DNA of 56,023 nucleotides from Dehalococcoidales bacterium (GCA_034432135.1 DAOUCO010000069.1:1-56023), one strand, 5' to 3'. Shown: positions 17,131-42,891, numbered from the stretch's first letter. Notes: generated by a model not told the origin, from the sequence alone. Numbers and translations: made by a program.

Positions 17131-18144
17131 TTGAAAACCAGAATCGGCATCAACGGCTTCGGGCGCATCGGGAGACTTACCTTGAGAACAATACTCCAGC
17201 GCCATCAGAATGAAATAGAAGTAATGGCGGTTAACGACCTAGCAGATACCAAAACCAATGCCCACTTATTTAAGTGGGATAGCGTGTACGGGCGCTATCC
17301 GGGTGAAGTAACATCTAAAGATAAGTCAATTGTTGTCGATGGCAAAGAAATACAGGTATTATCCGAGCGCGAGCCGGGCAATATCCCCTGGAAAGACTAC
17401 GGCGTAGATATCGTTATAGAGTCCACAGGTAAGTTCACCGATGCCAATAAAGCCAGGGCGCACACTAAAGGCGGCGCCAAAAAAGTCATCATATCCGCCC
17501 CCGCCGAAAAAGAAGACGCCACTATCGTCCTAGGGGTTAACGAAAAAACTTACGACCCCAAGAAACATCAAGTGATTTCCAATGCTTCCTGCACCACCAA
17601 CGGCATTGCGCCGGCGGTCAAGGTACTGCATGAGAATTTCGTCGTAACCAAGGGGCTGATGACCACCATCCACTCTTACACCAATGACCAAGTGGTGCTG
17701 GATATCGTCCATAAAGATATACGCCGGGCGCGCGCCGCCGCTTTGAACATGATACCCACGACTACTGGCGCCGCGAAGCTGGTGGGCAAGCTGGTCGAGG
17801 GACTGGAAGGCAAGATTCACGGCATTGCCATGCGCGTGCCAACGCCTACCGTTTCAGTCATCGACTTCGTCTGCAACACCCAAAAAGACGTCAGTGTTGA
17901 GCAGGTCAATGAGGCGTTTAAGAAAGCCGCCGCCGGACAATATAAGGGTATCATTGAGTACTGTGAGGAAAAGCTTGTCAGTATGGACTTCAAAGGCAAC
18001 GACCACAGCTGTATTATTGATGCTCCTAGTACCATGGTTATCGATAAGAACATGGTAAAAATACTCGCCTGGTACGATAACGAGTGGGGCTACAGCTGCC
18101 GGCTGGGGGATTTGGTAGTTTTTATAGCGAGTAAAGGACTTTAA
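17131..18144 (+). CDS. gap: Type I glyceraldehyde-3-phosphate dehydrogenase
   Basis: INGFGRIGR, SNASCTTN active site and WYDNEWGYS. TTG start with AAGGAGG RBS. Confidence 0.95.
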   Translation: MKTRIGINGFGRIGRLTLRTILQRHQNEIEVMAVNDLADTKTNAHLFKWDSVYGRYPGEVTSKDKSIVVDGKEIQVLSEREPGNIPWKDYGVDIVIESTGKFTDANKARAHTKGGAKKVIISAPAEKEDATIVLGVNEKTYDPKKHQVISNASCTTNGIAPAVKVLHENFVVTKGLMTTIHSYTNDQVVLDIVHKDIRRARAAALNMIPTTTGAAKLVGKLVEGLEGKIHGIAMRVPTPTVSVIDFVCNTQKDVSVEQVNEAFKKAAAGQYKGIIEYCEEKLVSMDFKGNDHSCIIDAPSTMVIDKNMVKILAWYDNEWGYSCRLGDLVVFIASKGL

Positions 18145-18205: not shown

Positions 18206-18235
18206 TTGACATCGTATTGCGTAATTACGTAAAAT
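18206..18235 (+). promoter_or_regulatory. Promoter of tubulin-like gene 1 (ATTGACAT-N-GTAAAAT)
   Basis: TTGACA at 18206-18211, an 18-nt spacer, then TAAAAT at 18230-18235. The architecture mirrors 22522-22550. Confidence 0.5.
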
Positions 18236-18264
18236 AAAGCAAAGAACCTTTTCCAAGGTGAGTA

Positions 18265-19440
18265 ATGAAATTAGTTGTGGTTGGTTTCGGGCAGTGCGGC
18301 GGCAGAATAGCTGACGAATTCGCCCGCTTAAATAAAAGAGCACTAGGCTTGCGCGGTTTAAACCTCATCACCGGGGCTTATGCCGTCAATACGGATATAG
18401 CCGACCTCAGCGGGCTGACGACGATTAAGTCCAACTTCGAGCACCGAATACTTATCGGCAACAAAAAGACGCAAGGTCACGGCGTGGGAAAAATCAACGA
18501 GCTTGGCGCGGAAATCGCCCACGAGGATGCCGATAAGGTCATCGAGACAATCAGAAGCACAGAACACTTTGCCGAAACAGATGCATTCCTGCTTTGCGCA
18601 GGGGCGGCGGGGGGCACAGGTTCTGGCGCAATATCCATAATGACGCAGCAGATAAAAGAGCGCTACGTAGATAGACCGGTCTACAACCTTATAGTATTGC
18701 CATTCGAGCATGAGGTCGCTACGGAGGAAAGGACGGTATATAACGTAGCTACCTGCTTAAAGTCCAGCTATCTAGTGGCAGATGCCATATTTCTCGTCGA
18801 TAACCAGAGATACGTGATGAAAGACGCTTCATTGATAAACAATCTTACTCGAATTAACATGATGATTGTGAAACCATTTTTCAATCTTCTTTGTGCCGGC
18901 GAAGAGAAAAGGACACGATACATCGGCGCCAAGATTCTGGATGCCGGGGACATCATCCAGACCTTAGTGGGCTGGACAACTATCGGTTACGGAAGGTCAC
19001 AGACGGGAATATTCAAGTCGTTTCTCGGCGGGCCTCGCGACTTCCGTAAAAAAGCCTCGGAAACCCAGCGTGGCATTCACGCCCTTGATGAAGCTATAAC
19101 CAGCCTATCCGTCAAGTGTAATCCGCTGGACTCAAAACGGGCGCTTTATCTGGTATCCGCTCCCGCCAAGGAAATCAATGTAGACCTGATAAAAGAACTC
19201 GGTACTTACATTAAAAATATGGCGCCAGAAGCCGTCATCAGGAGCGGCGATTATCCGAGAGAAAAAGGCAACCTGGATGTCACCGTAATTCTCTCGGAGA
19301 TGAGCGATGTGGAGAAGGTAAGGAGCTATTTCGCCAAAGCCATCAGACTCATCGCCGAACTGAAGAAACGTCAAGAAGGCTTAGTAAGCACACAGCGAGA
19401 GATTGATGTTTCGATTAAAGACATTCCCTCGCTGTTATAA
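18265..19440 (+). CDS. Tubulin/FtsZ-superfamily GTPase, CetZ/tubulin-flavoured (paralogue 1)
   Basis: T1 GFGQCGGRIA, T3-like GHGVGKINELGAEIA, tubulin signature AAGGTGSGA, base-contact LVDNQRYV, T7-like LDAGDIIQT, and C-terminal KDIPSLL. Confidence 0.8.
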   Translation: MKLVVVGFGQCGGRIADEFARLNKRALGLRGLNLITGAYAVNTDIADLSGLTTIKSNFEHRILIGNKKTQGHGVGKINELGAEIAHEDADKVIETIRSTEHFAETDAFLLCAGAAGGTGSGAISIMTQQIKERYVDRPVYNLIVLPFEHEVATEERTVYNVATCLKSSYLVADAIFLVDNQRYVMKDASLINNLTRINMMIVKPFFNLLCAGEEKRTRYIGAKILDAGDIIQTLVGWTTIGYGRSQTGIFKSFLGGPRDFRKKASETQRGIHALDEAITSLSVKCNPLDSKRALYLVSAPAKEINVDLIKELGTYIKNMAPEAVIRSGDYPREKGNLDVTVILSEMSDVEKVRSYFAKAIRLIAELKKRQEGLVSTQREIDVSIKDIPSLL

Positions 19441-19593
19441 ATTAACTATTCAGTTGTAAATACTATCGATAATCCCAACAGACCATTGTATTGGCGGTAA
19501 TACTAAATTTTACCAGCCTGTATAAATCACGCTACACCTTTCAACGAACACAAACAGTCCTACCTGTAAGAATGATAGCCGGATTATAATAAA

Positions 19594-20079
19594 CTATCTG
19601 GCTATCTTGGAGTAAATTTGCCAGGCCTGTTCGATAGTCTCGTCGCGAACCTGCCAGGCTCGCTCGATGGTGCTATCACGATTATTGGCGGCTTCGGCAA
19701 TTGCCGCTTCATAAGCACTATCAGCAGACTTTACAGCGCTCTTATATTCTTCTTCAGCCTGCTGTATAGCCGCTTCCCGGGCGCTGGCGGCATTAGCTAA
19801 CGCTTCCTCCCGCTGTTTCATCGCTTTAGCTACAGCAGAGGCATAAGCGCGAGTAGCCTGCTGTTCTGCCCGACGGTAGGCTTTAGCTACCTGCATTTCA
19901 TTCTCGTGATAAGCCTTAGCGACCTGCCGCTCGGCGTCCATATAAGCGGCATAAGCCCTTTCGGCCTGACTCATTACTTCGTCGAGAGGATTGGTAGAGC
20001 GTTCTTCTTCTTCTTCTTTTGGTTCTTCAGCTTGGATGGCTTCTTCAGCCGCGTGACCTTTTTTCTTCTTGGTAGGCAC
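19594..20079 (-). CDS. Hendecad-repeat alpha-helical protein with a Lys/Glu-rich N-terminus
   Basis: 161 aa with RBS AAGGAGGTG. Aromatic residues recur every 11 aa (Y46/57/68/79, Y112/123, W142/153). No TM segment or signal peptide. Confidence 0.7.
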   Translation of the reverse strand: MPTKKKKGHAAEEAIQAEEPKEEEEERSTNPLDEVMSQAERAYAAYMDAERQVAKAYHENEMQVAKAYRRAEQQATRAYASAVAKAMKQREEALANAASAREAAIQQAEEEYKSAVKSADSAYEAAIAEAANNRDSTIERAWQVRDETIEQAWQIYSKIAR

Positions 20080-20253
20080 CAGACACCTCCTTAATTTAGA
20101 TTATCTTAATATTTTTATACAGATTCTATATAGTGCCAAGTATATTGCGCACTATGTAAAAAGTCAAACAAATTTTATATCTTGTAAAGAGTACTTTTAT
20201 CCTAATTTATCACACGATTATTGGACAAGCAAGTTCTGGTTTTTAAGCCATTC

Positions 20254-22353
20254 TTAATCTTGATCGTCCTCATCCTTAGATTCTTCCTCATCAGGCTTTA
20301 ATTTTTTAGCTTCATACATTTTAGAGAGCAGTTCCAGGCGCTCCGCCATCTTTTTTCTGGCTTCTCTGGGTGTTTCCCGAAGAGGTTCAACAGGTTTTTC
20401 TTTATGCATTTTGCCGAGTTTGCCTGTTTTATCTAATTTCTTTACCGATTCTTTCAAGGTATCGAGGACCGCCTTGGTATCCTCAATAGTGGCTTCGGTC
20501 TCTTCTTCAGTGTATTCCCTGGTTTCATCAACCGGCTGTTCCTCCGCAACTTCAGGGACAGGCTCCTCTTCTTTTTTCTTGCTCTTTTTAACAGCTTCCT
20601 CACGTGACTTCGAAGCAATTATATCGTCACCGATTTCTTCAGCGGCAGGTACAGGCGAGCCAGTGATTCTCCCGGTCACCCCGGCTGCTATATCCGTAGC
20701 TTCTTTGATAGCTTTTAGAGTTCTTTCCGCTGATTCTCTAGAAGCCCTAACGAGGGCATCAGTCACTTCGCGGGCAGTTTTTACCGCCGCTTCCGACGCC
20801 TCTCTGGTTTCAAGGCTGATTTGCTGCGCCCTGGCAATGGCCAACTGTATTTCTTTTTCTGTGGATTCAGCCAATTTTCTGACAGACGAAATAGTGCTAT
20901 CGATAGTCTCACGGACAGTGTTTAATGCTTCTTCAGAAGCCTCGCGGGCGGAGTTATTTATTTCGTTGGCAGTTGCTATGATTTTTTCAGATTCTGTTTT
21001 TAAAGACTCGATAGCTTCACGCGCCGTCCTGGATGATTCTTCAGCCGATGCCCGGGAGGCATTGACAATTTCTTCAATGCGACTGATTAAGTCCCGGAGC
21101 TCTGCAGTAGTGGCAGCCGCTCTTTCCGAAACTTCTTTGCTTATCTGTTCAGCTCTAAAAATAGCCTCCTTTGATTCCACCACCGATTTTTCGGCCGCGG
21201 CTTCAGCAGCAGCGGCGGCTTTTTTCCCTTCTTCCTGGGCTTGTATGATAGCTTCCTGTATCGTTTTTACCGATTCATCGGCAGCTTTGACAGCATCGCT
21301 GCTGGCCTGTTCCGCCCTGGTAACAGCCTCCTGGAATTTGCGGGCGGCTTCAGCGGCATTTTCTTTAGCTTCTTGGCTGATGGCATCAGCGCGGGCAATA
21401 GCATCCTGGGCGGCTTTAGTAGCGGCTTCCGTAGCCTCATGTGTTTCACGGGCTACTTCTTCAACTCGTTTAATCGTTTCCTGAGCGGCTTTTTGCGCTG
21501 CTTCAACAGCCTGCTTCATTTCACGGCTGATAGCCTCAACACGATTCATAGTTTCCTGGGATGTCCTGTGTGAAGATTCAGCCAACTCACGAGCAACAGT
21601 ACTAATAGTTTCGGCGCGTTTGGCGGCTTCTTCCGATACCCTAGCGGCAATTTCAGCACTTTCCCTGGTTGACTTACTGACTTTTTCAGCTTTTATGCTG
21701 GTCTCTCTGGCGATTTTATTGGTATTATCAGCGGCGTCTTTAGCTTCTTTAGCTAAACGTTCAGCCCGCGTGGTAACTTCTTTAGCAACTTTAATAGATT
21801 CTTCGGCTGCTTCCTTAGCGGATTTTACGGCTAATTCAGCTTTACTGAGTGCATCTTGAGATATCTCTCTGGCAGATTCAGCTGTTTTTTTAGCTTCACG
21901 GCTTATCTCTTCGATACGGCTCAATCCGGTTTGTGACAGCATTAATGCAGACTCGGCGGACTGCATGGCATCCCGGCTGATTTTTTCTGCCCGGGCGATA
22001 GCTTCCTGAAAAGCCTTAGCCATAGCCTCGGTGGTCTGCTGGGGGCGTTTAGCAACTTCTTCGGCTTTTTTAATAGCCTCATCGGCGGCCCTCAAGGTCG
22101 CCACCATAGCTTCCTTGGATTCGCGGCTGATTTTTTCCGCGCGGTCGATAGCATCCTGGGCGGCTTTAGCCGCTGCTTCGGCGGCCGCCGTGGCTTCTTT
22201 ACCGATTTGCTCGGCACGCATAGCCGCCTCGATTGCCGTTTTGGTCGACCTTCCAGCTGCTTCTTTGGCAGCACGGCTTAAAGCTTCAGCCCTGGCTACC
22301 GCTTTTTCAAAATCGGTAATGTTGTTTTCTAATTCCTGTAACTCCGGCGACAT
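20254..22353 (-). CDS. 699-aa Ala/Glu/Lys-rich protein built from ~21 tandem 25-residue helical repeats plus an acidic/basic C-terminal tail
   Basis: Long uninterrupted ORF with repeat consensus RAExISxEAKxAAExAxKxxQEAIx. No TM segment or signal peptide. Confidence 0.8.
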   Translation of the reverse strand: MSPELQELENNITDFEKAVARAEALSRAAKEAAGRSTKTAIEAAMRAEQIGKEATAAAEAAAKAAQDAIDRAEKISRESKEAMVATLRAADEAIKKAEEVAKRPQQTTEAMAKAFQEAIARAEKISRDAMQSAESALMLSQTGLSRIEEISREAKKTAESAREISQDALSKAELAVKSAKEAAEESIKVAKEVTTRAERLAKEAKDAADNTNKIARETSIKAEKVSKSTRESAEIAARVSEEAAKRAETISTVARELAESSHRTSQETMNRVEAISREMKQAVEAAQKAAQETIKRVEEVARETHEATEAATKAAQDAIARADAISQEAKENAAEAARKFQEAVTRAEQASSDAVKAADESVKTIQEAIIQAQEEGKKAAAAAEAAAEKSVVESKEAIFRAEQISKEVSERAAATTAELRDLISRIEEIVNASRASAEESSRTAREAIESLKTESEKIIATANEINNSAREASEEALNTVRETIDSTISSVRKLAESTEKEIQLAIARAQQISLETREASEAAVKTAREVTDALVRASRESAERTLKAIKEATDIAAGVTGRITGSPVPAAEEIGDDIIASKSREEAVKKSKKKEEEPVPEVAEEQPVDETREYTEEETEATIEDTKAVLDTLKESVKKLDKTGKLGKMHKEKPVEPLRETPREARKKMAERLELLSKMYEAKKLKPDEEESKDEDDQD
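20749..22293 (-). repeat. Coding tandem repeat array (75-nt / 25-codon period)
   Basis: Residues 21-370 split into 14 consecutive blocks of exactly 25 aa, each starting R/K-A/V/I-E/D. Residues 371-535 continue with 25-29-aa blocks. Confidence 0.8.
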
Positions 22354-22521
22354 TACCTCGTCCTTTTTTGATAACTATCTGTTATCAGCATAGACTATTA
22401 TATTATCCGCACGCCAGTTTTTCAATAAACATATCTATCTTATAATAAATATCTATCTAATAATGAGTATGAAACGTTATAATAATTAGTACTAACTTAA
22501 AAAATACTTCGATGAGGATAA

Positions 22522-22550
22522 TTGACATTATCATTTTATTGTGTAAAAAT
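22522..22550 (+). promoter_or_regulatory. Promoter of tubulin-like gene 2 (ATTGACAT-N-GTAAAAAT)
   Basis: TTGACA at 22522-22527, a 16-17-nt spacer, then TAAAAA/AAAAAT. It shares the ATTGACAT and GTAAAA context with 18206-18235. Confidence 0.5.
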
Positions 22551-22578
22551 AACATAAATTTATAAAGTGAGGTGAAAT

Positions 22579-23751
22579 ATGAAACTCGTAGTTCTCGGCC
22601 TGGGACAATGCGGCGGCCGAATTGCCGACGAATTCGCCCGGCTTAATGGTAAAGCTAAAGCAAGGCGCGGTATGACCATAGTTACGGGATGTTTTGCGGT
22701 AAATACCGATGCTGCCGATTTAAGCGGTCTATCCAGCATCCCTAAAGACCATCGGCATCGCATACTTATAGGAGCACGCAAGACCGGCGGCCACGGCGTG
22801 GGAAAAATCAACGAACTGGGCGCTGAGATTGCGAAAGAGGATTCCGATAAAATCATCGAAAACCTGCGTAATACCAAGAAATTCTTCGAGACCGATGCTT
22901 TTATGCTTATCGCCGGGACAGCCGGCGGCACCGGTTCCGGAGCAATTTCCGTAGTCACGCAGCACCTGAAGGAACGCTATATCGATAAGCCGATATGGAA
23001 CCTGCTAGTCTTACCTTTCGAGCATGAAGAAACGACGGAAGAGCGGACGGTATTCAATGTAGCCACCTGTCTCAAGTCCTGCTACTCGGTGGCCGACGCC
23101 GTTTTCCTAGTTGATAACCAGAGGTATGTCAGGAAGGATTCCTCTCTCCAGACCAACCTTACCAAGATCAATGCCATGATTGCCGACCCGTTTTATAACC
23201 TGCTCTGCGCCGGCGAAGAGAAAAAGTCCAGATACATCGGCGCCAAGCTGATTGATGCCGGAGATATTATACAGACCGTAGTAGGCTGGACAGTCATTGG
23301 CTACGGCAAGACAACCGCACCGCTGTTCAAACTGCCGGAGTTGAGGAGTGATTTCCGTAAGAAAGGCGCCGAAATCCAGAAGGGCATCCAGGCGATGGAT
23401 GAAGCCATCAGCGAACTATCGTTGAAATGTAATCCCGCCGATTCGCGGCGAGCCTTATATCTGGTATCCGGGCCTGCCAAGGAAATGAACATGGATATGA
23501 TTAAGGAAATCGGCGATTACATGAGAGATATAGCACCGGAAGCTATTATACGGAACGGCGATTATCCTCGGGAAAGAGGCGTGGTGGATGTTACCGTGCT
23601 GCTTTCCGAGCTTAGCGACGTAGAGAAGGTGAGGGACTACTATCTCCGCTCCACCGATCTCATCCCCGAGTTCAAGAAGCGGCAGGAAGAGACCGAAGAT
23701 AAACTAAGGGCTCTGGAGGACGTTTCTAAAGATATTCCTTCGCTGCTATGA
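22579..23751 (+). CDS. Tubulin/FtsZ-superfamily GTPase (paralogue 2)
   Basis: Colinear with 18265-19440 over its full length, roughly two-thirds identical by eye. Motifs GLGQCGGRIA, GTAGGTGSGA, LVDNQRYV, IDAGDIIQT, and C-terminal KDIPSLL. Confidence 0.8.
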   Translation: MKLVVLGLGQCGGRIADEFARLNGKAKARRGMTIVTGCFAVNTDAADLSGLSSIPKDHRHRILIGARKTGGHGVGKINELGAEIAKEDSDKIIENLRNTKKFFETDAFMLIAGTAGGTGSGAISVVTQHLKERYIDKPIWNLLVLPFEHEETTEERTVFNVATCLKSCYSVADAVFLVDNQRYVRKDSSLQTNLTKINAMIADPFYNLLCAGEEKKSRYIGAKLIDAGDIIQTVVGWTVIGYGKTTAPLFKLPELRSDFRKKGAEIQKGIQAMDEAISELSLKCNPADSRRALYLVSGPAKEMNMDMIKEIGDYMRDIAPEAIIRNGDYPRERGVVDVTVLLSELSDVEKVRDYYLRSTDLIPEFKKRQEETEDKLRALEDVSKDIPSLL

Positions 23752-23784
23752 AAATAATAAGAAATATAAGAAATATCAGTTTGA

Positions 23785-23818
23785 AAGGGGGGCGTTAAAA
23801 ACCCCCCTTATCTTTTTC
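23785..23818 (+). terminator. Rho-independent terminator after tubulin-like gene 2
   Basis: GGGGGG-cgttaaaaa-CCCCCC hairpin followed by a T-rich tract. Confidence 0.7.
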
Positions 23819-23862: not shown

Positions 23863-23891
23863 TTGGGTAATCTCTATTTTTGGGGTATAAT
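23863..23891 (+). promoter_or_regulatory. dnaX promoter (TTGGGT-N17-TATAAT) placed 9 nt before the ATG
   Basis: Hexamers and spacing read directly. This implies a leaderless or 2-3-nt-leader mRNA. Confidence 0.45.
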
Positions 23892-23900
23892 AGAGCCGTA

Positions 23901-25523
23901 ATGGCTTCTCAAGTATTTTATCGCAAGTGGCGGCCGCAGCTTCTTTCAGAAGTCATCGGGCAGGAACATGTGACCAAAACTCTGCTCAACGCCCTGGTAA
24001 ACGAACGCGTCTCACACGCCTACCTTTTTTGTGGTCCGCGGGGTACCGGCAAGACCAGCACCGCCCGGGCTCTAGCCAAGGCGATTAACTGCCTGACTAA
24101 CGGCAAGGGCGAACCATGTAACAACTGCGAGATGTGCCAGGCGATTACCGAAGGTAGGGCTTTAGATGTGATTGAAGTGGACGCCGCCAGCAATACCGGC
24201 GTCGACGATATACGCAACCTGCGTGAAAGGGTAAATTATGCCCCCAACCAAGCGCGGAAAAAGGTCTATATCATCGATGAAGTCCACATGTTGAGTACCA
24301 GCGCCTCCAATGCCCTGCTCAAGACGCTGGAAGAGCCGCCACCGCATGCCATCTTTATCCTGGCGACCACCGAAGTACAGAAATTGTTGCCGACTATTCT
24401 CTCCCGCTGCCAGCGCTTCGATTTCCATCGCCATACACAGGCGAATACCGTGGCTGAATTAACGAGAGTATGCAAAGGCGAAGGTATAAAAGCCGAACCG
24501 GAGGCGTTAAAGCTCCTCGCCAGAGCGGCAACGGGCAGTATACGTGATGCGCTCAATCTTTTACAGCAACTGGTTACCTTTTACGGTAACGACGTTAAGC
24601 TCCAACAGGCGCAGGCGATGCTAGGCATTTCCGGCGACCAGCGCTCCAAGGAACTGGTCAAACATATCATCAATAAAGATACCGCCGCAGGAATTACTAC
24701 TCTCAATAACGTCAATAACGATGGGCTAGACCTGCGGCAGTTCCACCGGGAAGTCGTGGAGTTCTTAAGACTGCTACTGCTGGTCAAGACCGGCTCAAGC
24801 GAGTCGTTAGAGCTTACCGCCGAAGAAACTAGAGAGCTTAAAGAAGTAGCAAATAAAGCCAACCTGTCTCAAATATTAAAAGCCGTCAAACGTTTCGGTC
24901 AGCTTGAGCTTAATCTGGATAATTATTCGACACTTCCGCTGGAACTAGCGATAGTCGATGCTACACTGCCGGACATGGAAGTGAAAGCAGATTCCGTACA
25001 CAGAGTCGAGTCAGAACAGGTAACTAAAAAACCAATGCCGCCTAAAGTTTCGGCGCCAACTACCGAGCAGAAGCCAGTAAAAACAGAGGAGAAAAAGTCC
25101 CGTAATCCCGAAACGCCGGTAGCGGGGAATTACACGATTGCGGAGAAACCTGTTATCCAGAAGTCAGAAAGTCAAGAGGTAAATCCGCTTGCCAGCGGCA
25201 GCGCCATCGAGCAACTACAAGGACAATGGAGCAAAATGATTAATGAAGCGCCGGAAGGTCTGGGCAAGACCCCGGCGGCAGCTCTATTAAGGAGCGCCCG
25301 GCCCATATCCATCGAAAACGACATATTAGTTGTATCCGTCAAGCACCAGTACCATAAAGAGAAAATGGACATTATGGAAAACCAGAGAATTGCCGATAAA
25401 ATAATCAGCAGCTTCATGGGACGTCCCTGCAAGGTACGCTGCGTTTACGAACATGAAAATAACCATCTGGTAAAAGCAGCTTTAGAGATGGGAGCCCGTG
25501 TCATCGAAGCGGAGGAAAAATGA
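23901..25523 (+). CDS. dnaX: DNA polymerase III subunit gamma/tau
   Basis: YRKWRPQ...GQEHV...GPRGTGKTS (Walker A), Zn module CNNCEMC, DEVHML and SRCQRF. Confidence 0.9.
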   Translation: MASQVFYRKWRPQLLSEVIGQEHVTKTLLNALVNERVSHAYLFCGPRGTGKTSTARALAKAINCLTNGKGEPCNNCEMCQAITEGRALDVIEVDAASNTGVDDIRNLRERVNYAPNQARKKVYIIDEVHMLSTSASNALLKTLEEPPPHAIFILATTEVQKLLPTILSRCQRFDFHRHTQANTVAELTRVCKGEGIKAEPEALKLLARAATGSIRDALNLLQQLVTFYGNDVKLQQAQAMLGISGDQRSKELVKHIINKDTAAGITTLNNVNNDGLDLRQFHREVVEFLRLLLLVKTGSSESLELTAEETRELKEVANKANLSQILKAVKRFGQLELNLDNYSTLPLELAIVDATLPDMEVKADSVHRVESEQVTKKPMPPKVSAPTTEQKPVKTEEKKSRNPETPVAGNYTIAEKPVIQKSESQEVNPLASGSAIEQLQGQWSKMINEAPEGLGKTPAAALLRSARPISIENDILVVSVKHQYHKEKMDIMENQRIADKIISSFMGRPCKVRCVYEHENNHLVKAALEMGARVIEAEEK

Positions 25524-36470: not shown

Positions 36471-37244
36471 TTGGATGAAATAATCATTTCTAAAGCTATC
36501 GTTGAAGACTATACTAGAGAACTTCTCGATTCCATGGAGGTAGATGTGGCTATAGTCGGTGCCGGTCCTTCAGGCTTAGCCGCCGGTTACTATCTTGCCA
36601 AAAAGGGAATAAAAAACGCCATTTATGAAAGAAAATTAAGTGTTGGGGGAGGAATGTGGGGCGGGGGTATGATGTTTAACCGGATCGTTGTCCAGCCCGA
36701 GGCGAAGGAAATCCTGGATGAGTTCGGTATTGCAGCTAAAGAATATCAGAAAGGTTATTATGTTGCCGACTCGATAGAAGCTGTTTCTGCCCTTTGTTAT
36801 CGGACGGTAAAAGCCGGTACTCGTATTTTTAATCTGATAACGGCCGAAGATGTCATGATTAGAGAGGATGACAAGGTCACCGGTTTGGTATTGAACTGGA
36901 GCGCAGTTTCTTTAGCCAACTTGCATGTTGATCCACTGACTATCCGGTCAAAGCTAGTAATAGATGCTACTGGACACGAAGCCCAAATATGTAACCTAGT
37001 TGCCCGCAAAACAGGTCGAAAATTAGCCACCACCACAGGGGGAGTCATGGGGGAAAAACCGATGTGGGCTGAGATAGCGGAAAAGGAAACCGTCGCCTAT
37101 ACCAGAGAAGTATATCCCGGCCTAATAGGGGCAGGTATGGTGGTCAATGCTGTTTTTGGCCTGCCGCGCATGGGACCTATTTTCGGTGGTATGCTTTTAT
37201 CCGGTAAGAAAGCTGCTGAACTTGCCGCCAATTTGCTGAAATAA
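36471..37244 (+). CDS. thi4: Thiazole synthase Thi4 (archaeal/eukaryotic type, non-Cys active site)
   Basis: FAD/NAD motif [21 protein letters not shown] and DATGHEA. TTG start with AAGGAGG RBS. Confidence 0.85.
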
Positions 37245-41163: not shown

Positions 41164-42891
41164 ATGGGTATTTTCATAACGGATACCACTTTGCGGGATG
41201 CACATCAATCGCTGATAGCCACCAGGATGCGTACCAAAGATATGCTCCCCATCGCTGCTGAGCTTGATAAGGCGGGTTTCTTCTCTCTTGAGGTTTGGGG
41301 GGGCGCCACCTTTGATACCTGCATCCGGTTTTTAAACGAAGACCCTTGGGAGCGGCTGCGGAGCCTGCGGGAAAAAGTCAGGAATACCCGCCTGCAGATG
41401 CTTCTCCGCGGCCAGAACCTTGTTGGCTACCGCCACTATGCTGACGATGTGTTACGGGAGTTCATCCGTCTTTCGGTTAAAAACGGTATAGATGTCTTCC
41501 GCATCTTCGACGCCCTGAATGACATCAGGAATATGGAACTGGCGATAAAGGTAGCCAAGGAATTCAAAGCTCATGTCCAGGGAACCATCTGCTATACCAC
41601 CTCGCCGGTGCACACCACGGAAAAATTCGCCGCTATGGCTGAGCAGCTCGAGCGTCTGGGATGTGATTCCATCTGCATCAAGGATATGGCCGGGCTGATA
41701 TCGCCAGCGGCGGCGAGTGAACTGGTGAAAGCCATCAAGGGCCGGATAAGAGTTCCTCTAAACCTGCACTCGCATTGCTCCAGCGGTATGGCTCCCCTGA
41801 GCTACTATGCCGCTGCCCTTGTCGGCGTTGACATTGTGGATACCGCCTTTTCCGCTTTTGGCTGGGGTACTTCCCAGCCGCCTACGGAAAGCATCGTAGC
41901 CGCCTTCAGAGACACCCCCTATGATACCGGCCTGGAACTCGAGTTACTTTATGAAATCGGTGAATACTTCGCCACCTTGAGCGGAAAATACCGGATGCTC
42001 TTTACCGCCGAGACCACCCGCCCCAGCGTCAATGTCCTGCTGCACCAGATACCCGGCGGTATGCTCTCCAACCTTGTAAGTCAACTTCGGGAGCAGAATG
42101 CCCTAGACAAATACAGCCAGGTCCTGGAAGAAGTGCCTAGAGTACGGGCTGACCTAGGTTATCCGCCGCTAGTAACCCCGACGAGCCAGATTGTAGGTAT
42201 CCAGGCAGTGCTGAACGTCATTTCTGGAGGGCGCTACAAGCAGGTTACCCAGGAGGTGAAAAATTATCTCCTGGGTCATTACGGGCGGCCGCCCGGTGAG
42301 GTGAACGAAGATTTGAGGAGACAGGTGATAGGGGAAGAACGCCCTGTCGATGTCCGCCCCGCTGACCTCATCAAGCCGGAACTGGACAGGCTGCGAGAAG
42401 AAGGGCATAAGCTGGGCATCATCCACCGGGAGGAGGACCTGATAACTTACGCCCTTTACCCCCAAGTAGCGGTGAAATTCCTGCGCGGCGAACTTAAAGA
42501 AGAAGCCATGCCTTCGCCTGTGGAAGCGGCCGCAAAAAGTCCGGCGGCAGTCGACTTACCCCTGGAGTTCAGCGTGGACGTTGACGGCGAGGTGTTCAAT
42601 GTCCGGGTATCCTCGGTACTAGGTAAGACCGTAGAAGTGGAAAAGTCAAAGAAACCGAAGGAATTACCCGCTGGCGCCGTTGTTTCCCCGATGCAGGGGA
42701 TGATACTCGCTGTCAAAGTAAAGGCAGGTGATAAGGTTAAAGCCGGCGATGCGCTCATGGTCATCGAGGCGATGAAGATGCAGAACCAAGTTACCGCCCC
42801 GCATAACGGAACTGTAAAAGAAATACTAACTTTCCAGGGAGAGGTGGTCAATGCCGGTGATGTGCTATTGATTGTTGAGCCGAAGGGATAG
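41164..42891 (+). CDS. pycB: Pyruvate carboxylase subunit B / oxaloacetate decarboxylase alpha-type carboxyltransferase with biotinyl domain
   Basis: ITDTTLRDAHQS carboxyltransferase N-terminus and a C-terminal biotinylation motif, EAMKMQ. Confidence 0.85.
   Translation: MGIFITDTTLRDAHQSLIATRMRTKDMLPIAAELDKAGFFSLEVWGGATFDTCIRFLNEDPWERLRSLREKVRNTRLQMLLRGQNLVGYRHYADDVLREFIRLSVKNGIDVFRIFDALNDIRNMELAIKVAKEFKAHVQGTICYTTSPVHTTEKFAAMAEQLERLGCDSICIKDMAGLISPAAASELVKAIKGRIRVPLNLHSHCSSGMAPLSYYAAALVGVDIVDTAFSAFGWGTSQPPTESIVAAFRDTPYDTGLELELLYEIGEYFATLSGKYRMLFTAETTRPSVNVLLHQIPGGMLSNLVSQLREQNALDKYSQVLEEVPRVRADLGYPPLVTPTSQIVGIQAVLNVISGGRYKQVTQEVKNYLLGHYGRPPGEVNEDLRRQVIGEERPVDVRPADLIKPELDRLREEGHKLGIIHREEDLITYALYPQVAVKFLRGELKEEAMPSPVEAAAKSPAAVDLPLEFSVDVDGEVFNVRVSSVLGKTVEVEKSKKPKELPAGAVVSPMQGMILAVKVKAGDKVKAGDALMVIEAMKMQNQVTAPHNGTVKEILTFQGEVVNAGDVLLIVEPKG

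Follow-up and report, generated by a model that had tools for sequence, protein, structure and literature searches.

Architecture of the locus

A 56,023-nucleotide stretch of DNA from a Dehalococcoidales bacterium (GCA_034432135.1 DAOUCO010000069.1:1-56023; hereafter the window) carries a block of four genes between gap and dnaX, which we named cetA, cc161, cc699 and cetB (Table 1). The outer two, on the plus strand, encode paralogous GTPases of the tubulin/FtsZ superfamily, while the inner two, on the minus strand, encode proteins built of 11- and 25-residue repeats. An earlier analysis of the sequence alone (the sequence-only reading) had put this block forward as a candidate for a new cytoskeletal module, and the coordinates, strands and sizes that it gave all agree with the list of open reading frames (ORFs) of the window. 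The evidence below strongly supports a CetZ-like assignment of the two GTPases and, on genomic grounds, supports well a partnership of cetA with cc161 and cc699. All four genes are real: they evolve under purifying selection (ratio of nonsynonymous to synonymous substitution rates, dN/dS, of 0.02-0.2), each has a promoter-like site of its own, and the helix predicted for cc161 is a confident one.

Because a sigma-70-like promoter match precedes each gene, the four genes do not appear to form an operon. The sequence-only reading had described near-identical promoters and ribosome-binding sites for the two GTPase genes. This holds in rough terms, as the two promoter-like sites are similar and GGTGA-type ribosome-binding sites lie 3' of both; the promoter-like sites of cc161 and cc699 are equally good. 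The remainder of the window consists of chromosomal housekeeping genes. The sequence-only reading had pointed out that dcw and phage context is missing, and across the whole 56 kb neither ftsZ nor ftsA was found, nor any gene of dcw, phage or plasmid type; there is likewise no TubR-like DNA-binding gene and no centromere-like repeat.

Table 1. Genes, predicted promoters and sequence motifs of the cetA-cetB locus, with window coordinates.
Feature	Coordinates	Strand	Description
gap	17131-18144		Upstream flank of the four-gene block
cetA promoter (sigma-70-like)	18206-18235	+	TTGACA-18-TAAAAT, 11/12 consensus matches; predicted, consensus match only
cetA	18265-19440	+	CetZ-like tubulin-superfamily GTPase, 391 aa, basic, isoelectric point (pI) 8.6
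T4 tubulin signature of cetA	18607-18627	+	AGGTGSG; G116-G121 invariant in alignments
C-terminal tail of cetA	19417-19437	+	KDIPSLL; identical in 59/60 cetA homologues at positions -6 to -3
cc161	19594-20079	-	161-aa hendecad-repeat protein: basic N-terminus, acidic disordered linker, one long helix
cc161 promoter (sigma-70-like)	20139-20167	-	TTGACT-17-TATACT; predicted, consensus scan
cc699	20254-22353	-	699-aa protein: 25-residue coiled-coil repeats, acidic/basic disordered segment, conserved C-terminal motif
cc699 repeat array	20656-22305	-	Residues 17-566, ~22 copies of the 25-residue unit (register table)
cc699 promoter (sigma-70-like)	22397-22425	-	TTGAAA-17-TATAAT, divergent from cetB; predicted, consensus scan
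cetB promoter (sigma-70-like)	22522-22550	+	TTGACA-17-AAAAAT with TG extension; predicted, consensus scan
cetB	22579-23751	+	CetZ-like GTPase, 390 aa, near-neutral pI 6.6; more conserved of the two paralogues
T4 tubulin signature of cetB	22921-22941	+	AGGTGSG, from the translation
C-terminal tail of cetB	23728-23748	+	KDIPSLL; kept in ~55/57 cetB-type homologues
dnaX	23880-25523		Downstream flank of the four-gene block

cetA and cetB encode CetZ-like GTPases

Aligned along their entire length, the products of cetA and cetB share 68% identity. As the sequence-only reading had recognized, both carry the tubulin signature (T4 loop, AGGTGSG at residues 115-121 of each). Its GGTGSG and the T1 loop, GxGQCGG, are intact in each paralogue and do not vary within the family. 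The T7 loop is likewise complete in both, with D226-A-G-D229 of cetA aligning with D215...E218 of Haloferax volcanii CetZ1. A preprint on CetZ1 (bioRxiv 10.1101/2024.04.08.588506) reports that E218 is the catalytic T7 residue and that its mutation blocks CetZ1 function.

In searches with Pfam models, which the sequence-only reading had proposed as a check, both proteins score above the gathering cut-offs for Tubulin (PF00091; E 4e-30 and 105.9 bits for cetA, E 8e-32 and 111.5 bits for cetB, cut-off 33) and for CetZ_C (PF21011; E 1e-17 and 64.6 bits, E 5.5e-17 and 62.2 bits, cut-off 21.6). The closest solved structure is that of CetZ1 (4b46; E 1.3e-42, residues 1-363 aligned), and other CetZ structures are also matched (CetZ2, 4b45, E 5e-29; 3zid, E 1.5e-13). 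Matches to FtsZ structures run from E 1.7e-13 to about 1e-6; apart from the top one, neither they nor those to tubulin, BtubB and Asgard tubulin are stronger than 5e-8. Structure prediction followed by Foldseek points weakly in the same direction: CetZ1, Methanosaeta CetZ and CetZ2 ranked first, then FtsZ, with an AlphaFold2 model of cetA that was built from a shallow alignment and is of low confidence (predicted local distance difference test, pLDDT, 52). The M-loop region spans about 25 residues and includes a hydrophobic cluster, IFKSFL in cetA and LFKLPEL in cetB, for which a comparison at the sequence level gives the family patterns [IVF]FK[ST][FL]F and P[LIM]FK[LW]P, respectively. By sequence, this long hydrophobic loop resembles the amphipathic M-loop of CetZ1.

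Selection on both paralogues is purifying (dN/dS of 0.03-0.05 for cetA and 0.024-0.037 for cetB). Across the two, 180 positions are conserved and only 6 discriminate A from B copies, and the median pI is 8.8 for cetA and 6.7 for cetB, compared with about 5 for the coiled-coil proteins.

Overall, these data strongly support the view that both genes encode complete GTPases with the tubulin/FtsZ fold and belong to the CetZ-like lineage, and at the level of sequence we regard the family assignment as secure. Given the intact nucleotide-binding site and T7 loop, both should form GTP-dependent protofilaments. The earlier placement of the pair inside the superfamily and outside canonical FtsZ, TubZ and BtubAB thus stands. 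The suggestion that they form an undescribed family does not, since a Pfam CetZ_C model exists and the best solved relatives are CetZ1 and CetZ2.

Other members of the superfamily were considered and set aside. Against canonical FtsZ, the TIGR00065 model scores 56 bits (cut-off 295), FtsZ_C is unmatched and the window has no ftsA or dcw genes. TubZ/PhuZ is disfavored by a Tubulin_2 (PF13809) match of E 0.5-0.8, below the cut-off, and by the housekeeping context. For BtubA/B or a eukaryote-type tubulin, matches (BtubB, E 7e-6; gamma-tubulin, E 5e-7) cover part of the GTPase domain only and there is no Tubulin_C match. FtsZl1 is described as carrying a coiled-coil domain, lacking T6-H7 and associating with von Willebrand factor A (vWA) proteins, and FtsZl2 as having a C-terminal alpha/beta region of ~300 aa; cetA and cetB have T7 and CetZ_C, are ~390 aa long, and have neither a fused coiled coil nor a vWA gene nearby.

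Two helical repeat proteins lie between the GTPase genes

The sequence-only reading had described the products of the two minus-strand genes as repeat proteins with periods of 11 and 25 residues and with no transmembrane segment or enzymatic motif. Both periods were borne out. There is no transmembrane-like stretch in cc161 or cc699 (maximum Kyte-Doolittle means over 19 residues of 0.08 and 0.49), neither has a significant Pfam, NCBIfam or PDB match, and no similarity between the two is detectable.

The self-similarity of cc161 has a period of 11 residues (z 8.9 versus shuffles), with a hydrophobic period of 3.65. Its N-terminus is basic (MPTKKKK), and an acidic linker that varies among homologues leads into the conserved hendecad array, which extends from PLDEVMSQAERAYAAYMDAERQVAKAY to AWQVRDETIEQAWQIYSKIAR. 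AlphaFold2 predicts a single helix of 130 residues (residues 31-160) with pLDDT >95 and a disordered N-terminus. The protein is conserved across 60 loci under purifying selection (dN/dS of 0.06-0.20), and one subgroup has an exact 11-residue deletion. No relative of cc161 was found in the PDB, and a profile search returned only 25 matches, all hypothetical proteins; partners were then traced through the loci.

Residues 1-580 of cc699 show a period of 25 residues (z 14.4); harmonics appear at 50, 75 and 100, and there are sub-lags at 11, 14 and 36. The repeat consensus, EAi.RAEeiSkEAkEAAEAAAKaaQ, has 7 core positions per 25 residues; the resulting value of 3.57 residues per turn agrees with a 7+7+11 pattern, and residues 17-557 contain only 7 Gly or Pro. 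Beyond the array come a charged, disordered segment and the motif RLExLxxMYExKK, which is conserved at the C-terminus as another motif is at the N-terminus. Homologues range from 520 to 911 aa, with lengths that show their strongest periodicity at 25 (R 0.39, ~99th percentile of a jittered null), while dN/dS (~0.11) indicates purifying selection. A homologue search with cc699 returned nothing, its 8000 word-sharing candidates being dominated by low-complexity proteins. We also considered whether one 25-residue repeat could correspond to one filament subunit and rejected this, as the rise of the repeat is ~3.7 nm and the CetZ1 subunit repeat is 4.2 nm.

A 357-aa Ser/Ala-rich ORF runs antisense to cc699 (window:20411-21484, plus strand), with other long antisense ORFs nearby, and AT skew is strongly negative at 20-22 kb (-0.31). 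We attribute these features to the A/E/K-rich repeats, whose GAA/GCA-rich DNA yields such ORFs as artefacts when read in reverse complement, and do not regard the ORFs as genes.

cetA, cc161 and cc699 form a conserved unit

To assess conservation of the block in related genomes, we used a genome scan that returned 76 loci, nearly all of them labelled Dehalococcoidales, Dehalococcoidia or Chloroflexi/Chloroflexota; four labelled otherwise (Syntrophaceae, Gemmatimonadales, Deltaproteobacteria) were taken as mis-binned. A diverse alignment of 30 sequences was too divergent for the locus scan and a closer one was used instead. In 54 loci a cetA-type gene has 3 kb of sequence or more downstream of it; in 50 of these, cc161 and cc699 adjoin cetA in the same orientation, and in 39 the whole gap-cetA-cc161-cc699-cetB-dnaX block is present. 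A metagenome scan centred on cc161 gave a convergent cetZ-like gene in 51/52 loci and cc699 upstream in 34/35, the apparent exception (L117) having a cc699-like gene for which tblastn coverage is partial.

The three genes also stay together where their surroundings change. They are found together in four loci in which cetB is not adjacent (L053, L058, L065 and L070). In L079, a GTPase 58% identical to cetA is accompanied by a 157-aa protein of 11-residue periodicity and a 561-aa protein of 25-residue periodicity, the latter with the same C-terminal motif, and this neighbourhood is unrelated, with nitroreductase and methyltransferase genes. Where a cetB-type gene stands alone between gap and dnaX, its surroundings are free of coiled-coil genes. 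Because the linkage holds from both directions and survives the relocation in L079, we consider the trio a conserved unit and not a passenger of local synteny, and the partnership of cetA with cc161 and cc699 is well supported by genomics alone. The neighbourhood singled out by the sequence-only reading is therefore conserved in related genomes, and the GTPases neither fall in an FtsZ clade nor fail to match tubulin/FtsZ models.

No description of a module with two coiled-coil proteins, or of its function and partners, was found in the literature searched. What is undescribed is the conserved module and its function; the GTPase family, and the occurrence of CetZ-like sequences in Dehalococcoidia, are already known.

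A conserved C-terminal tail resembles the FtsZ peptide

In both paralogues a charged linker leads into the C-terminal tail KDIPSLL (Table 1). The canonical FtsZ of Dehalococcoidales has the C-terminal peptide ELDVPSFLRK, and the core D-[IV]-P-S-[FL]-L is common to the two kinds of tail. This likeness suggests that FtsA, or some other receptor of the FtsZ peptide, may also receive the CetZ-like tails. By analogy with what is proposed for the CetZ1 tail LESLF, KDIPSLL may instead contact the next subunit. The LESLF tail is reported to be essential for CetZ1 function (bioRxiv 10.1101/2024.04.08.588506).

Whether a canonical ftsZ exists elsewhere was a further question raised by the sequence-only reading. 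In a related metagenome-assembled genome of the order (L051:6242-11986), rsmH-ftsA-ftsZ is followed directly by a single cetZ-like gene (tail KNIPTLL) and then nrdR, so that ftsA-ftsZ and a cetZ-like gene coexist; it is this FtsZ that carries ELDVPSFLRK, a peptide of the classical kind. Dehalococcoidales are described as being without peptidoglycan and the rest of the dcw cluster while retaining mraZ-mraW-ftsA-ftsZ (PMC10608941).

Distribution and phylogeny of the CetZ-like proteins

Database matches to the GTPases number more than 6000 proteins, most of them under an FtsZ label. The top 120 are 81-98% identical, come, where organisms are named, from Dehalococcoidales or Chloroflexi metagenome-assembled genomes, and are labelled cell division protein FtsZ, tubulin/FtsZ family protein or tubulin-like protein CetZ. 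Clustering at 50% gave 70 clusters at E < 1e-30. Of the sampled clusters at 38-52% identity, those with named organisms are all from Dehalococcoidia; at 31-35% identity, the organisms named are archaea (CetZ of Nitrososphaerales and Halogeometricum). With a canonical Dehalococcoidales FtsZ as root, neighbour joining sets the Dehalococcoidia-type sequences apart, as a clade, from the archaeal CetZ that were sampled (bootstrap 81/100). Within that clade, the cetA clade is recovered in 75/100 replicates and the branching order of A and B copies has low bootstrap values (5-23%).

These results place the GTPases outside FtsZ, as the sequence-only reading had anticipated, and beside the known CetZ family, so that the GTPases themselves are not new. 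A phylogeny published in 2023 (PMC9871819) assigns Dehalococcoidia sequences to paraphyletic 'CetZ-like' groups outside the canonical CetZ node, and reviews of CetZ describe the family as archaea-specific (PMC9856176). Canonical CetZ is a euryarchaeal clade with archaeal hosts; since cetA and cetB have a bacterial host and fall in a separate clade outside the canonical node, we file them as CetZ-like and not as canonical CetZ.

Three other CetZ-like loci were recorded in the course of the scan. One (L072:8764-11176) has a third paralogue type, 43% identical to cetB by tblastn and ending in ELPTLD, which groups with P0136/P0140 and stands in tandem between gap and the cetB-type gene, the usual position of cetA. 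Another (L083:8001-9257) has a distant 418-aa CetZ-like protein (cluster P0148/P0300, 38% identity) amid resolvases and insertion sequence (IS) genes (IS605 OrfB/TnpB-like and IS66 transposases), an arrangement suggesting that mobile DNA carries some of the CetZ-like genes of bacteria. In the third (L078:139-6024), a cetA-like gene is followed by genes for 146-aa and 170-aa products with prepilin/pseudopilin-like N-termini and for a 975-aa protein; these pilin-like neighbours recall the linkage of cetZ with type IV pili reported for Thermococcales and for haloarchaeal CetZ2.

Related proteins in Dehalococcoides mccartyi

Proteomic work on D. mccartyi lists a 'FtsZ/tubulin GTPase' and reports that the tubulin-like protein and a nearby hypothetical protein were abundant in pure culture, whereas in co-cultures, where the cells change shape and become barrel-shaped, both were lower or undetected (PMC8163811). 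Papers on this species describe DET0589 and DET0636 (btf_0551 and btf_0595) as FtsZ/tubulin-like, in addition to the canonical ftsA-ftsZ (DET0342-0343); the two genes are ~47 locus tags apart. The hypothetical genes DET0586-0588 adjoin DET0589 and are reported to be co-expressed, with transcripts tied to solvent toxicity and inhibited growth (PMC5102406, PMC4340931). As orthologues of cc161 and cc699, DET0586-0588 and btf_0548 are unverified candidates, plausible for DET0586-0588 from their position.

A probable CetZ-type module with dedicated coiled-coil partners

We consider it reasonably probable that the locus encodes a chromosomal cytoskeletal module of the CetZ type, here in a Dehalococcoidales bacterium (phylum Chloroflexota), with dedicated coiled-coil partners and a role in the shape or division of wall-less, S-layered cells, that cellular role being one we infer. 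In such a module cetB would be the ancestral copy, able to work alone, while cetA would be a basic paralogue working with two acidic, fully helical partners; the opposite charges of cetA and the coiled-coil proteins fit electrostatic pairing. As predicted, cc161 would be one helix of ~20 nm and cc699 a rod of ~80 nm made of 25-residue repeats, and both might bundle, scaffold or tether the filament, as Zap proteins and EzrA do for FtsZ or microtubule-associated proteins (MAPs) do for tubulin. KDIPSLL on both paralogues could be a docking peptide, analogous to the essential hydrophobic tail of CetZ1, and, being close to the FtsZ peptide D[IV]PxFL, it might dock on FtsA or another FtsZ-peptide receptor. 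The module would then shape or divide peptidoglycan-free, S-layered cells, as in haloarchaea, acting beside FtsA-FtsZ and not as its replacement. A wider proposal, which we regard as tentative and rather doubtful, is that of a hybrid cytoskeleton in which a CetZ-type filament with relatives in the archaeal family, possibly acquired from archaea, has gained by evolution an FtsZ-like peptide that plugs it into FtsA and has recruited two MAP-like coiled-coil scaffolds, thereby setting the disc shape and driving wall-less division; cc161 and cc699, the latter changing length in 25-residue steps, would lie along or bridge the filaments.

Several observations weigh against a dedicated module. Gene adjacency is the sole basis on which the coiled-coil proteins are linked to the GTPases, and that adjacency largely reflects shared ancestry in one order, in which gap, dnaX, ybaB and recR are syntenic too. 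In two loci (L021:11223-13184 and L028:11254-12816), cetA, a cc699-like gene and cetB occur without cc161, the cc699 homologues being 653 and 520 aa long. The promoter scan points to four separate transcription units in convergent and divergent orientations, the structural model of cetA is poor, and the mismatch between repeat rise and subunit repeat leaves a ruler of one repeat per subunit unsupported. Since KDIPSLL persists even where no coiled-coil genes are close by, the coiled-coil proteins are probably not its partner. Finally, the link of DET0586-0588 to solvent toxicity could indicate a stress role.

On a rival view, the GTPases would be no more than additional division paralogues, brought into the FtsA-FtsZ ring by their FtsZ-like tail. 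The coiled-coil genes would then be unrelated neighbours held in place by order-wide synteny alone, coding for instance for abundant helical proteins that serve in stress or membrane protection, of the late embryogenesis abundant (LEA), apolipoprotein or PspA type. The FtsZ-like tail, the adjacency of ftsA, ftsZ and a cetZ-like gene in one genome, the separate promoters, the syntenic housekeeping flanks and the solvent-responsive transcripts next to DET0589 are all in keeping with this explanation, and an amphipathic periodicity of 11 residues is typical of helices that bind lipid surfaces. We nevertheless think it unlikely, because the trio survives both a move to an unrelated context and separation from cetB, its linkage is near absolute from either direction, cetB-type genes on their own lack coiled-coil neighbours, and cc161 and cc699 have no significant match in Pfam, where the PspA and LEA families are included. 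Likewise, the adjacency of the paralogues in 39 loci, their shared conserved positions (with interfaces that are probably compatible) and their systematically different net charges could be taken to mean that cetA and cetB form an obligate heterodimer or heteropolymer, like alpha/beta-tubulin or BtubA/B, with the coiled-coil proteins as BtubC- or MAP-like factors. This appears improbable for a pair in which each member has a complete T7 loop and GTP-binding site and so few positions tell A from B, in which cetB-type genes stand alone in several genomes and cetA also occurs without an adjacent cetB, and whose counterparts DET0589 and DET0636 lie far apart. As for a DNA-segregation system of a mobile element, of the TubZ/PhuZ type, some distant CetZ-like clusters do lie amid resolvases and IS elements (L083), but for the present locus this idea is effectively refuted by the housekeeping character of the window, the missing TubR-like gene and centromere-like repeats, the unmatched Tubulin_2 model, a gap-dnaX position that is stable across the order, and very strong purifying selection.

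Other features of the window

Beyond the four-gene block, the window contains a thiamine pyrophosphate (TPP) riboswitch (window:36228-36328, plus strand; Rfam RF00059, 69 bits) upstream of a gene for a Thi4-family thiazole synthase (36471-37244). A 95-aa ORF between ybaB and recR (window:25926-26213, plus strand), missing at that position in the gene calls of L001, has a motif (YYVYIMTN...LYTGVTNDL...R..EH) that looks GIY-YIG-like, a candidate assignment made by eye only. Tandem biotin-carboxylase paralogues of 490 and 459 aa (window:43092-45982, plus strand) lie 3' of a gene for a pyruvate/oxaloacetate carboxyltransferase-biotinyl subunit (41164-42891). The sole tRNA of the window is a tRNA-Ser with anticodon TGA (window:50536-50626, plus strand).

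Comparison with known systems and significance

Archaeal CetZ (H. volcanii CetZ1 and CetZ2; 4B46, 4B45) has the same two-domain architecture as cetA and cetB and is their best match in sequence and fold. Common to both are a T1 loop GQxGG, an acidic residue in T7, a long M-loop and a short hydrophobic tail, and the hosts in both cases are wall-less, S-layered and FtsZ-retaining. They differ in that cetA and cetB are bacterial, are only 31-35% identical to archaeal members and form their own clade, and in that the CetZ1 tail is of an acidic LESLF type whereas theirs resembles the FtsZ peptide. In addition, the neighbourhoods described in the publications consulted contain type IV pilus or nucleotide/cofactor genes, whereas cetA is linked to two coiled-coil genes.

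FtsZ and its helical or coiled-coil accessory proteins offer a conceptual parallel to cc161 and cc699. With the bacterial FtsZ system (FtsA, SepF, ZapA/ZapB, EzrA), cetA and cetB share a flexible linker and a terminal D-I/V-P-x-[FL]-L peptide, but they fail the FtsZ equivalog model, lack FtsZ_C and occur in an order that has a separate canonical FtsZ, and cc161 and cc699, being without significant Pfam or NCBIfam matches, have none to the Zap or EzrA families. Crescentin, FilP and Scy (with its 51-residue repeat) are bacterial coiled-coil proteins of the intermediate-filament-like kind with non-heptad periods. They are long rods poor in Gly and Pro, as cc161 and cc699 are predicted to be, and share with these two a hendecad-containing periodicity (25 = 7+7+11 in cc699; 11 in cc161). 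They differ in their period, no sequence similarity to them was detected, and cc161 and cc699 are genetically tied to a tubulin homologue. BtubA/B-BtubC, TubZRC/PhuZ and FtsZl1/FtsZl2 are comparable as prokaryotic tubulin-superfamily proteins other than FtsZ with dedicated accessory genes, but no TubR- or BtubC-like genes are present at the cetA-cetB locus.

No binding partner of CetZ is named in those parts of the CetZ literature that were examined, and through strict linkage the present locus offers two candidates. It also represents a large and well-conserved bacterial CetZ-like lineage with a candidate docking peptide that would tie it to the FtsZ-FtsA machinery. These findings bear on how filaments of the tubulin superfamily gain accessory proteins and perhaps on the transfer of cytoskeletal genes between domains. 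For Dehalococcoides and its relatives, which matter for bioremediation, the module is a candidate for the system that maintains the disc shape and allows division without peptidoglycan.

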